A DNA stretch of 64,000 nt, from positions 1 to 64,000 of IMG/VR virus record IMGVR_UViG_3300036792_000096; one strand, given 5' to 3'. Under the pieces are notes generated by a model, which worked only from the letters and a program-made list of their open reading frames with translations, was not told where the DNA came from and searched no databases. Positions 339-5,649 of this stretch are shown here, one piece after another. The stretch is from a virus. A program made the position numbers and the translations under genes. Within the stretch, counting starts at the first letter, position 1. Each line of letters opens with the position of its first letter.

Positions 339-536
339 GTGACCTCCCCGCCCCCGCCCCGCTCCCAAGTCCGCATCGCCGGCCACCGAGGCACGGTCAC
401 CTTCCTCGGGATGCAGAGCGCGACCGTCGCGCACCTGTGGTCTGCCACCGGCCACCCCGACGGCAACCGCTTCGTCCCCCTCGCTGATCTGGTCCCCGCT
501 GCCCCGTCTCATAAGCGCGTGGGTGTGGCGCCGTGA
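339..536 (+). CDS. Hypothetical phage protein
   Basis: GAGAGGG upstream; GTGA overlap with the methyltransferase start. Confidence 0.5.
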   Translation: MTSPPPPRSQVRIAGHRGTVTFLGMQSATVAHLWSATGHPDGNRFVPLADLVPAAPSHKRVGVAP

Positions 537-3202
537 CCCGCCCCACGTTCGTCAGCGTCTTCGCCGGCATCGGAGGTTTTGACCGCGGGTTGGAGTTGGC
601 GGGTTGGTCGTGTGTAGCGCAGATTGAGAAGAACCCATTCCGGCGCAGGGTGCTGGCGCGCCACTGGCCCGACGTGAGGAGGTACGAGGATGTCTGCACC
701 GTCCGAGGAGCCGATAGCGTTCGACTGGCAGAGCGGAGGGGACGCGAGGGGTCTCAAGCCGTCAGAGCGAACTTCCGCTCTGACGGCGAACCAGAATCCA
801 GCGGTCTACGTGCCCGAGACGGCGGACACGCTGAGGAGCCACGGGAGGCCGGGGAGCAACTCGGCGGGGAACTTGAACGTGTCGATCTCCTCTGCGGCGG
901 GTTCCCCTGCGTTGCTGCTGGAACCTATGTGCTTGCGTGGGACGGCTATCGGCCCATCGAATCTCTGGCTATTGGAGATCGAGTGCTCACCCACCTCGGC
1001 CGGTGGCGACGGGTTACCGCGGTCATGTCCCGCGAGGGCGCTGCTCTCAGGCGAATCAAGGCTGGAGGTGTTGCTCCCCTTCTCACCACAGACGAACATC
1101 CCTTCTACGCCCGGGAACAGGGGCGACGGTGGAACAACGGCAGGCGGGCCTACGATCGAACCTTCTCCGAGCCCCAGTGGATCGCAGCGGGAAACCTCGG
1201 TCGGGACCACCGTCTCGCTCAGGTTCTCCCCGACATCGGAGGCGATGCCCGCCTGCCCGATCTGTGGTGGCTTGTGGGGCGCTACCTCGCGGATGGGTGG
1301 CGAGTCAGGAGACGCTTCACTGGCAAAGGCAACCCTATCCAGGGGGAGCCTCAAGGACGAGTTGTCATCTGTTGCGCCCACGATGAAGCCGAATTGCTTG
1401 CCAAGCGAATTGAGCGGGCTGGCTACCATGCCACTCCGAGCAGAGAGCGTACCGTCTTCAAGTTCCACATCGTTGACAGCGACTTCTACCGATTCCTTGA
1501 GCAGTTCGGGACTGGAGCTGGTGGCAAGTGCATCCCAGGATGGGTGCTTGGACTTGACCAAGAGCGTGCCTCTGCCTTGCTTGAAGGCTGGCTCTCAGGA
1601 GATGGATGGACCCGAGAAGATGGGGTGCGGGACGGGGCAACTATCAGCAAGTCGCTGGCTCTCGGTATGGCTTTGCTTGCCCAGCGTGCTTACGGAATGG
1701 TGGCAGGTGTCTACCCCACCGAACGCCCTGCTCACTGCAGTATTGAGGGCCGCCGAGTCAGACAACAGCGATCATGGAACGTTCGAATCCCTCCGAGTAA
1801 CCGTTCGGCCTTTGTTGAAGGACGATACGGCTGGAAGCAGGTCAGATCCTCCGAGCCTGCTGGCGTGGGCACCGTCTACAACATATCGGTGGAGGAAGAC
1901 GAGTCCTACGTCGCTGACGGTGCGATCGTCCATAACTGCCAAGACATCAGTGCGGCCAACAGCGGGGGTGCAGGGCTCGCTGGAGCTCGGAGCGGACTCT
2001 TCTTCGAGTTCGCCCGGCTGGCTGGAGAGCTACGCCCGACTTGGCTTCTCGTGGAGAACGTGGATAACCTCCTCGCCAAGCACAGCGGGGAGGACTTTGC
2101 AGTCGTCCTTCGCACGCTCGGAGCGCTCGGGTATTTCCTGGAGTGGCGAGTGCTGGACAGCCGCTATTTCGGCGTTCCCCAGCGGCGCAACAGAGTGTTC
2201 CTTGTCGGACATCTTGGAGGCCCACCCCCCTTCCCGGTTCTCTTTGAGCCCGAAGGCGTGCAGGGGCATCCTGCGGCGGGCCGAGAGGCGGGGGCGGAGG
2301 TTGCCGGAACGCTTGGCGGTGGCTCTGGAGGCCGTGGCTGGTGCGACGACCTAGACCGGGCCGGGGATGAAAGCCCCGGCCCGGTGGAAGACGTGGCGTT
2401 CGCCCTGCGGTCCAGCCAGTCAGGATCCCAGGGTGGGGCTCAGGGGCACAACACGACGTATGTAGCGACGGCCGAGCCAGAGGTATCACGCTCGCTGTTG
2501 GGTGGAGGCAACGACAGGCACGACGTAGGTCTGGAGATCCTCAGCGTGCCTGTCGTTGCCTCCACCCTCTCCACCTCGGCTGGAACCAACGGCCATTACG
2601 GGGGCAGGCACCAGGAGGACGACAGTAGCCTTATGGCCTCCACGATGGGCGGTGACGGCGTCGCGCACGCCGTCACCGCCGCGAAGTCCTACCGGCTGGA
2701 CGGCGAGTCGGAGACCTTCGTGGCGGCTTATGGAATCCAGTCGAATGCGTGGCGACCCGGGAAGGCTAAGACTCCGTCTGCCGATGCAGAGGGGCGAGTA
2801 CGTCTCCGCGACCCGGGGTTGGGGATTGACCCAGAACTGGCGGGCACGCTCCAAGGCGGTCCTATCGGCGTAGCGGCGTTTGATCTGGCCCAGATCACGA
2901 GCAACGTGAACCGCAATCGAGTGGAACCGGGTTTGCCCATGCCACCCCTGAATGGATCAGGCCAAGCCGGTGTCACCGGCTTGGCCTCAGTGCGGCGCCT
3001 GACGCCCCTTGAGCGAGAGCGACTCCAGGGATTCCCCGATGGCTGGAGTTGTCTCTGCGGCTGCGAGCCCTACTCCACGCACGCCTGCAAGTGCAAGGAC
3101 GGCCCGAGGGATCAGGCAACCGGAGACGCTGTGACGGTCCCCGTGGTCGCTTGGATCGGACGACGCCTATTGGCAGCGTACGAGGCTGAGAACGCCTCGT
3201 GA
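533..3202 (+). CDS. dcm: DNA cytosine-5 methyltransferase with intein
   Basis: Motif I FAGIGG, split motif IV GGFP|CQD, motif VI ENV, motif VIII PQRRNRVFLVG, motif IX RRLTPLERERLQGFP, motif X GDAVTVPV. Confidence 0.95.
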   Translation: MTRPTFVSVFAGIGGFDRGLELAGWSCVAQIEKNPFRRRVLARHWPDVRRYEDVCTVRGADSVRLAERRGREGSQAVRANFRSDGEPESSGLRARDGGHAEEPREAGEQLGGELERVDLLCGGFPCVAAGTYVLAWDGYRPIESLAIGDRVLTHLGRWRRVTAVMSREGAALRRIKAGGVAPLLTTDEHPFYAREQGRRWNNGRRAYDRTFSEPQWIAAGNLGRDHRLAQVLPDIGGDARLPDLWWLVGRYLADGWRVRRRFTGKGNPIQGEPQGRVVICCAHDEAELLAKRIERAGYHATPSRERTVFKFHIVDSDFYRFLEQFGTGAGGKCIPGWVLGLDQERASALLEGWLSGDGWTREDGVRDGATISKSLALGMALLAQRAYGMVAGVYPTERPAHCSIEGRRVRQQRSWNVRIPPSNRSAFVEGRYGWKQVRSSEPAGVGTVYNISVEEDESYVADGAIVHNCQDISAANSGGAGLAGARSGLFFEFARLAGELRPTWLLVENVDNLLAKHSGEDFAVVLRTLGALGYFLEWRVLDSRYFGVPQRRNRVFLVGHLGGPPPFPVLFEPEGVQGHPAAGREAGAEVAGTLGGGSGGRGWCDDLDRAGDESPGPVEDVAFALRSSQSGSQGGAQGHNTTYVATAEPEVSRSLLGGGNDRHDVGLEILSVPVVASTLSTSAGTNGHYGGRHQEDDSSLMASTMGGDGVAHAVTAAKSYRLDGESETFVAAYGIQSNAWRPGKAKTPSADAEGRVRLRDPGLGIDPELAGTLQGGPIGVAAFDLAQITSNVNRNRVEPGLPMPPLNGSGQAGVTGLASVRRLTPLERERLQGFPDGWSCLCGCEPYSTHACKCKDGPRDQATGDAVTVPVVAWIGRRLLAAYEAENAS
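690..2354 (+). CDS. Overlapping +1-frame polypeptide (M.EcoHK31I beta-like accessory subunit) nested in dcm
   Basis: AGGAGGT Shine-Dalgarno at 677-683, 6 nt before ATG 690; C-terminus ECWT...ECSLSDILE...FSLSPKACRGILRRAERRGRRLP...L; frame open for 554 codons. Confidence 0.75.
   Translation: MSAPSEEPIAFDWQSGGDARGLKPSERTSALTANQNPAVYVPETADTLRSHGRPGSNSAGNLNVSISSAAGSPALLLEPMCLRGTAIGPSNLWLLEIECSPTSAGGDGLPRSCPARALLSGESRLEVLLPFSPQTNIPSTPGNRGDGGTTAGGPTIEPSPSPSGSQRETSVGTTVSLRFSPTSEAMPACPICGGLWGATSRMGGESGDASLAKATLSRGSLKDELSSVAPTMKPNCLPSELSGLATMPLRAESVPSSSSTSLTATSTDSLSSSGLELVASASQDGCLDLTKSVPLPCLKAGSQEMDGPEKMGCGTGQLSASRWLSVWLCLPSVLTEWWQVSTPPNALLTAVLRAAESDNSDHGTFESLRVTVRPLLKDDTAGSRSDPPSLLAWAPSTTYRWRKTSPTSLTVRSSITAKTSVRPTAGVQGSLELGADSSSSSPGWLESYARLGFSWRTWITSSPSTAGRTLQSSFARSERSGISWSGECWTAAISAFPSGATECSLSDILEAHPPSRFSLSPKACRGILRRAERRGRRLPERLAVALEAVAGATT
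908..1936 (+). mobile_element. Intein (343 aa) with LAGLIDADG-type homing endonuclease, inserted in the catalytic PC motif of Dcm
   Basis: Starts CVAAGT, block B TDEHPF, endonuclease motifs LVGRYLADG and LLEGWLSGDG, ends VYNISVEEDESYVADGAIVHN followed by the +1 Cys of CQD. Confidence 0.95.
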
Positions 3203-3450
3203 CCACGCCCGAGTTCCCCGCCAATGTCCGCCGTTTCCATGGCTGGTTAGCGGAGACCGTCGTGTCCGAGGTCAACCCCGACGGCACGGTGCGCCTCCAT
3301 GGCATCCCGCTCGCCGCTGACGTGGTCCGCCCCTATGAGCCTCGAGCCGGCGACAGAGTAGAGGTGCTCCGCGGCCGAGCCTTCGCCGTCGTCTTGCGCA
3401 AACTTCCCGATCTGGAAGAGACTAGCCAGAACAAACCGAATGTGACGTAG
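3199..3450 (+). CDS. Hypothetical protein
   Basis: GTGA overlap with the dcm stop. Confidence 0.6.
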   Translation: MTTPEFPANVRRFHGWLAETVVSEVNPDGTVRLHGIPLAADVVRPYEPRAGDRVEVLRGRAFAVVLRKLPDLEETSQNKPNVT

Positions 3451-3454
3451 CCTC

Positions 3455-3570
3455 TGGACGCAAAGGGACTCCGTATGGTAACCTTGGGTCGGAACGAAGC
3501 GGGACCCGAGGGCGCAGCGAACGCCGCAGCGGGTCCCTACCGCAGAACCTGAACGGGAGGCTCCACGGGT
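3455..3570 (+). promoter_or_regulatory. Promoter (TGGACG-18-TAACCT) and structured 5' leader (copy A)
   Basis: GGGACCCG 3501-3508 pairs with CGGGTCCC 3530-3537; second hairpin covers GGGAGG before ATG 3571. Confidence 0.5.
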
Positions 3571-4113
3571 ATGAGTGACACTATCGCAGCCGACGGGGAT
3601 CTCCTCGCACCTTCCTCGCAGCGTTCCCCGACCGCCTCCGACCGTCGCAAGGCCCGCCAGAACTTCGACCCCGACTTCGTCTGCGTCTGCAATCAGCGGG
3701 TCGTTCTGGCCTTCGACTGGCAGCGAGGCGAGGTCGTCTCACTGGTCCGAGCCCCCGGCCACTCCGGCAAGTTCCAGGTCGCCGGCCTCCTCCCCGACGG
3801 CTTCGTAGCGCCCCACAAGGGCTGCGCCACCTACGTCGGCTGGGGCGGTACCCACGTCAAGCACGAGTGCCCGGGGCCCGCACCGCGGCCCGAGATCGAC
3901 CCTGCCTCCCTCCCGTCGTTCGGCTTCCCCGGCGGCGTCACGGACGACGAGCAGCGCGCTCACCGTGCCTTCACCGATCCCGAGTGGCAGCGTGTGGACT
4001 GCCGCATTCTCCTCGCCGGTGACCGTGCCCGCAAGGCGCTCGGCATGCAGCGTCCCGGCGGTCTCTTGCCCGCAGTAGCCGAAGCCCGAGCCCTCGCAGG
4101 AGACGGCGAATGA
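3571..4113 (+). CDS. Hypothetical protein
   Basis: SD GGGAGG; ATGA overlap with the next gene. Confidence 0.65.
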   Translation: MSDTIAADGDLLAPSSQRSPTASDRRKARQNFDPDFVCVCNQRVVLAFDWQRGEVVSLVRAPGHSGKFQVAGLLPDGFVAPHKGCATYVGWGGTHVKHECPGPAPRPEIDPASLPSFGFPGGVTDDEQRAHRAFTDPEWQRVDCRILLAGDRARKALGMQRPGGLLPAVAEARALAGDGE

Positions 4114-4367
4114 GCATGCTCTCACTTCCCGACGATCTGACGCCCGAAGAGGCGAAGGCCATCCGAGCCCTTGACCGGCTCGCCCACCGTTGGCCCGACA
4201 CGCTGATGATCGCCAGCATGGGTGGACTGCTCTATGTGCTTCGGTTGGACGAAGACGGCGGGCAGCCGATGTCTGGGGGAGAGGGTGTTCATCGACGCCT
4301 TGATGACGGTGCGATCGTCTACTCGGTGCCAGCAGAATTGATCTCGAACACAGGTGGTGACTGGTGA
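4110..4367 (+). CDS. Hypothetical protein
   Basis: Translationally coupled ORF. Confidence 0.6.
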   Translation: MSMLSLPDDLTPEEAKAIRALDRLAHRWPDTLMIASMGGLLYVLRLDEDGGQPMSGGEGVHRRLDDGAIVYSVPAELISNTGGDW

Positions 4368-4609
4368 AACATTCCGCAGCCGCCTCCCACCAGATCCTCA
4401 GCAACCGCCTAGCGCGGATAGACGAGATCCTCGCCCGCCCCCTCATCAACGACAACACCCGCACCGACTACGAAGCGGCCCGTGCTCAGGTCGAGAAGGC
4501 ACTGGAAGCGCTCCCCGCCGTCTGCAAGTCCTGCGGGACGGTCATCACCTCAGCGGAGTCTCTCAGGACAGGCTTGGGGTCCGAGTGTCGAACGAAGGGA
4601 GCAGCATGA
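4364..4609 (+). CDS. DUF6011-like zinc-binding protein
   Basis: CKSCGTVITSAESLRTGLGSEC motif. Confidence 0.7.
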   Translation: MKHSAAASHQILSNRLARIDEILARPLINDNTRTDYEAARAQVEKALEALPAVCKSCGTVITSAESLRTGLGSECRTKGAA

Positions 4610-5649
4610 GCGAGTGGGGACACCTAGATCGGGTCGCCCTTGACAGGCACATCACGGGCCACTACGGGGAGGATCAATTCCGTGACGATGATCCCGACGA
4701 GGAAGACTATGAGGAGCCCGAGCCGGATCTGAGCGGCTGCCCCTACTACGCCCTCTTCCACGGACTTCCCGGCCACGACCCGCACGCGGTCTGTGACCGT
4801 GGCTGCTACAGCGAGCCAGCCTGCATCACCGATGAGCCGCGTGAGGGATGGCCTTCCGTTCGTGCTCGGAAGGGTGACTCGTGATGGCTGACGCCTACTC
4901 CATCGGGCCCTCCCGAGCCGGAACCTCCGAGGCCAACATCGGCCCGTGGATGCTCACGGAACCGGCCGCCGACAGCGTACGGGAGTCCGAGTCGGACACG
5001 ATGACCGTAGCCGTCCTCGCAGGCGACGACAAGGCGACCCGAGACCTACTCGCCAACGCTCCCGTCATCCGCTCCGCAGCCGAGGAGGCCCTCAGGCGCC
5101 TCCAAGGGATTGACTGGTGGCTCTTGATCTCCCACGACGTGATAGACGCTGTGTCGGACGCCGTTGAGGCGCTCAAACGAGGACTGGGGCAGTCGTGACG
5201 CTCCTGCTCGCAATCGCCGCGGCGCTCATCGTGCTCGCTGGCATGCGTTCCCTCGTCGGCCGGGTGCTAGACGCGGAGATCCAGTGGGAGCAGGTCGTCC
5301 CAAGAACTGCGGGGGAGGCGGCTCCCGGGGTGCCCGGTCCGGCTCACGGCCCCTCCCTCGCAGTACCAACCTTCGCCGAAGCGGAGTACGCGCTGTGCGA
5401 CTGCTTCGGATGTGAATGTGCCCGGTTCTTTGAGACGGAGGAAGGCAAGTGAAAGCGGAACCGTTGCAACCAGACGACGGCCAGTGGGTCGATGCCGTCG
5501 TGACCGTCCCGGCTTACACGGCTGGTGGCGGGGAGAACCTCGTGGACGGTCGCCCTCGCACCGAGATGTACCCGGCCCGCCTCCACACCCGCTACACGCA
5601 CAAGGGTCGCCCGGCCTTCCTTGCCCGTGTGCCCGAGGTTGCGCCATGA
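4606..5649 (+). CDS. Run of four coupled hypothetical genes (4606-4884, 4881-5198, 5195-5452, 5449-5649)
   Basis: Successive ATGA/GTGA overlaps with GGAGG-like RBSs. Confidence 0.6.

Follow-up and report, generated by a model that had tools for sequence, protein, structure and literature searches.

We have analyzed a 64,000-nucleotide stretch of viral DNA (here called the window; GC content 59-73%), which is the first 64 kb of the 90,657-bp IMG/VR record IMGVR_UViG_3300036792_000096, rated 99% complete, and have concentrated on a C5 cytosine DNA methyltransferase gene near its start. This gene, whose frame-0 chain is referred to as alpha, is interrupted by a LAGLIDADG homing-endonuclease intein and is overlapped in the +1 frame by a second open reading frame (ORF), referred to as beta, which crosses the complete intein without meeting a stop codon (Table 1). 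We consider it likely that the intein is kept free of +1 stops by selection on the overlapping beta gene, which would be read straight through the intein DNA. The alpha ORF matches PF00145 (E=9.3e-41) as well as phrog_116 and phrog_363 (DNA methyltransferase), and holds all ten C5 methyltransferase motifs in frame 0; those by which membership in the PF00145 family was assigned are all found in this one frame, namely motif I (FAGIGG), motif IV (GFP/C..Q, after removal of the intein), motif VI (ENV, within VENV), motif VIII (QRRNR), motif IX (RRLTPLERERLQGFPDGW) and motif X (GDAVTVPV). Four parts follow one another in the beta ORF: an extension at the N-terminus, the intein DNA read in +1, a leader, and a C-terminal domain that is conserved.

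Table 1. Features of the two-frame methyltransferase locus, in window coordinates; a slash marks an intein junction.
Feature	Position	Strand	Details
C5 cytosine DNA methyltransferase gene (alpha)	533..3202	+	frame 0, 889 codons including the intein
Shine-Dalgarno AGGAGGT	677..683	+	6 nt upstream of ATG690; from start-codon scan
Overlapping +1-frame ORF (beta-like)	690..2354	+	554 codons + TAG (2352-2354)
Beta N-terminal extension	690..907	+	IAFDWQSGGD..., ETADTLRSHGRPGSNS at ~816-863
LAGLIDADG homing-endonuclease intein	908..1936	+	343 codons; junctions GGFP/CVAAGT...AIVHN/CQDIS
+1 reading of the intein DNA	909..1937	+	343 stop-free codons; presumed unspliced spacer in beta
Conserved C-terminal domain of the +1 ORF	2199..2351	+	CSLSDILE..RFSLSPKACRGILRRAERRGRRLPERLAVALEAV; beta profile E=2e-53

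The insertion point of the intein lies between the P and the C of the catalytic PCQ motif (motif IV). The element begins with Cys1, carries the block B signature TxxH (T61..H64, TTDEH) and ends in H342-N343, followed by the catalytic Cys as the +1 extein residue. Its two LAGLIDADG motifs, GRYLADGW (G124-W131) and GWLSGDGW (G231-D232-G233), fall on invariant or near-invariant columns of the alignment, and the residues C1, T61, H64, G124/A128/G130, G231-D232-G233, H342 and N343 were invariant among 41 aligned sequences. The Hint_2 profile PF13403 was matched with E=1.2e-6 and 29.4 bits, above its cut-off of 28.4, and the match to Intein_splicing (PF14890; E=0.0035) stayed under its cut-off. Database searches identified 595 homologues at E<=1e-5, the best 120 of which all lie inside PF00145 proteins; named phages also carry homologues. 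Terminal residues, block B, the Hint profile and two LAGLIDADG motifs with their acidic residue place the element among the inteins, and in the alpha frame it is presumably a normal intein which is spliced out of the alpha chain. An earlier reading of the DNA made from its letters and a list of ORFs (the original prediction) had proposed a homing-endonuclease intein of 343 codons at 908-1936, and these boundaries proved exact. In frame 0 the GC content at third codon positions (GC3) of the intein is 0.63, as compared with approximately 0.80 in the other genes of the phage, as would be expected if the intein is of foreign origin, if its codon choice is constrained by the +1 frame, which disfavors NCG and NTG codons, or if both apply.

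The +1 frame is open from position 678 to 2351, and within the intein it contains no stop, against 11 stops in the +2 frame. Synonymous shuffling of the intein's own codons gave an expectation of 2.8-2.9 +1 stops with a probability of finding none, P(0), of 0.026; resampling the intein with the codon usage of the phage raised the expectation to 5.0 (P(0)=0.0024), and for the whole open run of 557-558 codons, resampled in the same way, 6.6 stops were expected (P=0.0008). The 40 phage ORFs used as reference (17,028 codons) average 2.30 +1 stops per 100 codons, and none of them has a +1 open run of more than 257 codons, as opposed to 558 in the methylase gene. The shuffle null was calibrated on 94 stop-bearing related inteins, where 12.6 +1 stops were observed and 12.4 were expected. 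The codons of the intein show how the frame stays open: all nine Leu or Val codons that stand before an A-initial codon are CTC, GTT or GTC and none is NTG, which is found in 15 of the 52 Leu and Val codons of the intein overall. A stop-free +1 frame across the intein is therefore unlikely to be due to chance. The original prediction had noted that the +1 ORF 690-2354 crosses the whole intein without a stop, that CTC and GTT are used where NTG would make TGA in the +1 frame, and that the insert in the second protein is rich in Ser and Pro. The frame scan and the codon counts bear out the first two, an open frame seldom arises in the shuffles, and the +1 reading of the intein is indeed 16% Ser and 9% Pro, with Ser, Thr, Pro and Gly together accounting for 44%.

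Sequence comparisons show the +1 ORF to be a genuine overlapping gene of wide distribution. The C-terminal domain of its product overlaps the stretch of the cytosine methylase (Dcm) from motif VIII to "VLFEPEG..", shows the GC3 signature in the +1 frame and has L/S/A/G/I/L/R/P columns that are invariant, the window included. Beta residues 453-522 match phrog_16143 (E=9.1e-7), and the pattern of this family, here named type A (..CSLSxILE..YYLSPRACQGILRRA..RGK.LP..L..AL in +1 over Dcm motif VIII and the residues behind it), is present. A phmmer search of 1.84 billion representatives returned 3,111 cluster representatives related to beta, 610 of them at E<=1e-10. In almost all cases the match is to the last ~150 residues, and they are named just "hypothetical protein" in their sources and have no Pfam domain. 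A Pfam scan of the +1 ORF gave no match. A local profile hidden Markov model (HMM) of beta was built from 148 relatives. The beta domain lies in the +1 frame of the Dcm core in each of 85 loci (80 viral contigs, locus L167, and the four GenBank phages Omega, Vibrio 1.171.O, Caulobacter DMCA and Rctr41k), with physical overlap with the core in 83 of them.

Diversity by codon position, measured over 36 representatives below 80% identity, identifies the frame under selection along this overlap. In HMM columns 101-135 (YYLSPRACQGILRRA..RGK.LP) the diversity at the three +1 codon positions is 0.36/0.28/0.60, so that the +1 third position is the most variable (0.60) and the Dcm third position the least (0.28), while in columns 1-65, which correspond to Dcm motifs IV-VIII, the Dcm third position is the most variable (0.62) and the codon statistics show no +1-frame selection. 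The +1 frame is the selected frame in columns 101-135, and the Dcm frame rules columns 1-65. Because of the +1-frame selection on the beta/Dcm overlap, nucleotide identity between positions 2128-2308 of the window and Mycobacterium, Vibrio and Caulobacter phages remains at ~70%. AlphaFold2 modelling of a 138-residue piece of beta gave a predicted local distance difference test score (pLDDT) of 91-97 for residues ~100-138, which form two helices, and of ~50 for the leader.

Two observations on relatives concern the way in which the two chains are built. In Mycobacterium phage Omega (L002) the cytosine methylase is annotated as gp127/gp128, split by a frame-0 stop, and the +1 frame of gp127 holds an unannotated beta-like ORF of 135 columns (locus positions 2817-3224, E=7e-49). 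The unit ENQRAEVRLTD..QLT.GGGKPGQGY forms the N-terminus of some beta proteins (P0003, P0007) and is found in the alpha frame in Omega (gp128); it therefore seems that target-recognition-like modules pass from one overlapping chain to the other.

The evidence for selection on the intein itself comes from its relatives. We retrieved 160 loci with related inteins, of which 158 were complete. Zero +1 stops were found in 55 of these 158 (42 unique, about 7 lineages, GC 0.40-0.62), a set made up of the window, L088, L093, L094, L095, L015, L096 and a gut-phage clade with 48 copies at 40-42% GC. The stop-free inteins carry 8-30 stops in the +2 frame, and those at 40-46% GC carry 21-30. All 55 are located at Dcm motif IV with a +1 ORF that is open on both sides, and the intein of the named record MT835477.1 is likewise stop-free in +1 with a spanning +1 ORF. 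Inteins in non-Dcm hosts all have +1 stops at the expected rate, and so do the inteins of ordinary Dcm genes without beta (L006, L008-L014, L016); L006, the closest relative in an ordinary Dcm gene, is 58% identical to the window intein and has the same GC content and 8 +1 stops. A third group with stops at this rate comprises inteins in Dcm genes where beta starts 3' of the intein (L089-L092, L028, L156, L160/161): L089-L092 have 21 +1 stops in the intein and a further one 5 codons past its end, with beta starting anew at ..EMKMEAQQ.., while the beta ORFs of L028, L156 and L160/161 are short. Stop-free inteins occur only where a +1 ORF spans the insertion site. Read-through appears to be selected, yet it is not the sole solution, because some relatives start beta 3' of the intein.

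Selection can be followed more closely in the gut-phage clade, whose 35 unique inteins diverge down to 78% nucleotide identity and provide 418 variant alleles. Approximately 6.5% of possible substitutions in this clade create a +1 stop; 27.3 such variants were expected, and none was observed (Poisson P=1.4e-12); there is ongoing purifying selection against +1 stops in this related clade. In a quick maximum-likelihood tree of the inteins, 12 open (stop-free) and 2 closed (stop-bearing) inteins fall into one weakly supported group, with L094 nearby, and at least four changes between the open and closed states are needed; branch lengths are 0.5-1.1 changes per site, and the open state has therefore been held over deep divergence. 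The original prediction had also held that the region is dual-coding, and that the intein was purged of +1 stops after invading it. The relatives of beta and the +1-frame selection uphold the dual coding, and the comparison of homologous inteins, with zero +1 stops only under a spanning +1 ORF and the expected numbers elsewhere, speaks for selection against stops; a purge after invasion is not separable from the spread of a stop-free lineage through two-frame alleles only.

The same contrast between open and closed inteins is seen in the charge of the peptide encoded by the +1 frame. Its net charge ranges from -16 to +1 in open inteins (-5 in the window) and from +25 to +60 in closed ones (+35 in L006), with L092, which is closed and lies inside the open group of the tree, at +4. 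Synonymous shuffles leave the +1 net charge little changed, and the charge signature is for this reason a contrast between inteins and not a test within a sequence. The +1 reading of the intein matches no family and just the +1 readings of related inteins (P0009, P0014, P0034, P0059), a likeness that is a shadow of conserved intein blocks.

A dozen loci of the gut clade (L108, L111, L118, L121-L123, L125, L126, L128, L136-L138) show a match to the beta HMM which switches frame part-way, ~150-200 nt after the intein, and in some of these, e.g., L108 with its +1 ORF at 2403-4643, the +1 ORF goes on over a further stretch of more than 700 codons. An indel of 1 nt seems to have joined the beta leader to the C-terminal part of alpha; genuine variation, phase variation and faulty assembly are all possible causes.

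Whether the intein must be read through depends on where beta starts. Among the +1-frame start codons between 678 and 2130, the AGGAGGT ahead of ATG690 is the sole 7-mer match to a Shine-Dalgarno sequence, and the best candidate 3' of the intein is TTG2097, with GGAG at a spacing of 4. The segment 690-907 has GC contents by codon position of (0.56, 0.62, 0.82) when read in +1, as compared with (0.68, 0.52, 0.80) in phage genes. In frame 0 this segment places ~50 residues rich in Arg, Gly and Glu between motifs III and IV, an insert that is absent from relatives. In +1 it encodes a motif T-L-R-S-H-x-R-P-G-S-N (ETADTLRSHGRPGSNS) that is common to the N-termini of the beta proteins P0006, P0008 and P0104; in all three the motif sits directly 5' of GSPAKTS, and it is this sequence that the window intein splits (GSP/AKTS). 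From these features we infer that beta starts at ATG690, upstream of the intein. A duplicated, out-of-frame segment of the target-recognition domain was considered as a source of this N-terminal piece and rejected, as a BLASTP comparison of the +1 piece with the frame-0 C-extein gave E=11. Close relatives of the window C-extein were looked for in viral contigs, and just one distant locus (L167, 35% identity) was found, with no sister allele of this gene that lacks the intein. The GTG start of alpha (533-536) overlaps the TGA of the upstream ORF 339-536 as GTGA, and as the methylase's own Shine-Dalgarno is weak (GGTG) this suggests translational coupling of the methylase to that ORF.

The main rival to read-through is that beta is made from an internal start 3' of the intein, and that the open +1 frame is a legacy of earlier two-frame hosts which is not currently needed. 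Such starts have precedents in the loci listed above in which a stop-bearing intein precedes beta (L089-L092, L028, L156, L160/161), and in the intein-less type A loci, of which 44/58 have the beta start 106 nt 3' of the Cys codon of motif IV and 11-14/58 have it 35-120 nt 5' of that codon; TTG2097 with its weak GGAG could serve in the window. The functional domain of beta comprises only its last ~40-70 residues, of which the last ~40 fold confidently, and since the open inteins cluster on the tree a single origin could account for them, the stop-free state then being partly inherited and not currently selected. Three more points tell against read-through and its product: the similarity of the N-terminal extension is weak (E ~0.002-0.03 in a small local database), alpha of the window has its own motif IX, and for this one sequence the chance probability is modest (0.0024-0.03), the case drawing its strength from the relatives. 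An internal start nevertheless leaves much without a reason: the only strong Shine-Dalgarno in the +1 frame stands at ATG690, the segment behind it has a coding GC3 in +1 and a motif shared with beta N-termini, and alpha accommodates a junk-like insert in order to host it. A stop-free frame of 343 codons that is not selected would decay, given the ~6.5% of possible substitutions that create a +1 stop in the related clade, and L006, the closest relative in an ordinary Dcm gene, has 8 stops and a charge of +35. On balance we regard an internal start as unlikely.

An open +1 frame might also mean nothing, since long alternative-frame ORFs are common in GC-rich DNA; the GC content of the window, the long spurious ORFs elsewhere in the phage and the P(0) of the own-codon shuffle, which is not extreme, would be in keeping with this. 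The length of the run relative to the reference ORFs speaks against it, as does the fact that the +1 ORF ends in a domain with thousands of relatives under +1-frame selection, and it fails on the related inteins, where the shuffles are calibrated, inteins of low GC are stop-free in +1 with many +2 stops, and stop-creating variants are lacking in the gut clade; we give composition hardly any credence. Scarcely better placed is the idea that beta is reached by programmed ribosomal frameshifting from alpha, or that the peptide read from the intein in +1 does something in its own right and is not a passive spacer. Both frames are on one mRNA, the alpha and beta starts of a second type of locus (type B, described below) overlap as ATGTG with one ribosome-binding site so that the chains are translationally entangled, and the neutral charge of the read-through looks selected. 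Yet a frameshift near the beta domain would not need a +1 frame that is open 1.5 kb upstream, a dedicated Shine-Dalgarno and ATG are present at 677-692, and the lack of any family match to the +1 intein reading other than those to related inteins offers no support for a function of its own. This explanation we hold to be very improbable.

The methylase gene belongs to a widespread type of phage C5 methyltransferase with a second protein, beta, encoded in the +1 frame. In the proposed scheme beta would be translated through the intein, and the long product would be functional. Beta would initiate at ATG690 behind its own strong Shine-Dalgarno, encode the short N-terminal extension first, and have to reach the small helical C-terminal domain at ~2199-2351, with the intein lying inside its ORF. 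As the intein cannot splice in +1, ribosomes starting at 690 would traverse 343 codons of intein DNA, and selection on beta would forbid +1 stops and strong charge in the intein, either by removing the stops once an intein had invaded or by sorting among inteins, so that two-frame alleles retain only those without +1 stops. The product would be a beta protein of ~554 residues with an unspliced, probably disordered spacer, rich in Ser, Thr, Pro and Gly, in its weakly constrained leader. An insert at this place should be tolerable according to the structural model and the diversity data, because confident folding of beta is limited to its last ~40 residues and columns 1-65 are without +1 selection. 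We lean, with rather less assurance, towards the wider view that a lineage of LAGLIDADG inteins has co-adapted to two-frame methylases, that beta is in fact translated across ~1 kb of intein DNA and is functional with a neutral, unspliced spacer of 320-350 residues, and that the constraint of the second frame decides which alleles are open to homing.

Inteins are usually treated as invisible to the host gene, as they remove themselves from the protein. When the same intein DNA also lies inside a second gene from which it is not removed, its "silent" sites would come under host selection for the lack of stops and for a benign charge, and the synonymous sites of a selfish element would be policed by a host gene from which splicing out is impossible. 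Natural systems in which a mobile element reveals selection on an overlapping frame are rare, and this would be one of them, with members of the same intein family in single-frame genes as the controls. It would also imply that a protein can tolerate ~340 residues of junk in its leader, that the range of homing alleles of an intein may depend on frame compatibility, and that a second ORF has gone unannotated in thousands of cytosine-methylase genes of phages.

Support for beta as a subunit or partner of the methyltransferase was sought by predicting the complex of alpha and beta of the intein-less locus L237. The median score was 0.58 against 0.00 for the best of 3 controls, the runs agreed in at least 42% of contacts, and the partner had a pLDDT of at least 50. 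In the calibration of the tool the mark applied was reached by 58/80 solved complexes and by 2/110 mismatched pairs; scores of 0.60 or lower account for 7/80 solved complexes and for both of the passing mismatches. The support from L237 is weak. By analogy with M.EcoHK31I, described below, beta may be such a partner.

The original work on a two-chain enzyme of this kind, M.EcoHK31I, is reportedly that of Lee, Kam and Shaw in 1995, as cited by a later paper. According to that later paper, M.EcoHK31I (E. coli HK31, YGGCCR) is a C5 methyltransferase of two polypeptides, both of which are needed for activity, with motifs I-VIII and X in alpha and motif IX in a beta chain encoded entirely within the alpha gene but in a different frame (PMC2836561). 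A nested beta was present in 85/85 type A loci and in 78/78 loci of type B, where it is in the +1 frame throughout. In type B the start of beta lies upstream of motif IV in 75 loci, typically 254 nt before the Cys codon, and the +1 ORF continues with WPTP repeats and the motif IX-like LNPxFVEWLMG, over which frame 0 is junk before it resumes at motif X; this is the layout published for M.EcoHK31I (PMC2836561). In type B the beta ATG often overlaps the alpha GTG (ATGTG), as in L253, L262, L271 and L264, where beta reads MWILPKQLHTS..., and both chains of type B appear to start at one shared site behind a single Shine-Dalgarno-like stretch and to overlap over nearly the whole gene. Like the beta of M.EcoHK31I, the window beta (690-2354) is nested in the other frame of alpha (533-3202). 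In M.EcoHK31I motif IX belongs to beta, whereas the window alpha keeps its own motif IX, and a motif IX supplied by beta was seen only in the type B relatives. The small domain at the end of the window beta (YYLSPRACQGILRRA..RGK.LP) is a different one; its L-S-P-R-A-C resembles the L-T-P-R-E-C of motif IX by eye only. No intein is reported for M.EcoHK31I.

Inteins in phage methylases, the nested beta of M.EcoHK31I and the read-through of a homing element in a host frame are each already known; full-text literature searches turned up no account of an intein under constraint from a second, overlapping frame. The methylase inteins of mycobacteriophage cluster F1 (Pacc40 gp60 and others) have homologous Hint and LAGLIDADG parts, are 30-38% identical to the window intein and, like it, home into conserved methylase motifs; that of Pacc40 occupies another site (..HV/C...KN/CPLQFD) in a region that is not dual-coded, and it has 11 +1 stops. 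A parallel for the read-through is provided by the ShiLan domain and the Pacc40 insertion, which are out-of-frame HNH endonucleases inside DNA methylase genes of actinobacteriophages (PMC11855218). As in ShiLan, the homing element in the window lies in a phage methylase gene and carries no stops in a frame that serves no function of the element itself, and a host protein is, or in the window would be, translated through it and remains unspliced (PMC11855218). The ShiLan element lacks a splicing domain; there it is the host frame that runs through the element, with the nuclease encoded in an alternative frame (PMC11855218). Unlike ShiLan, the window has a canonical intein that would splice from the host frame, and read-through would be required of an overlapping second host gene.

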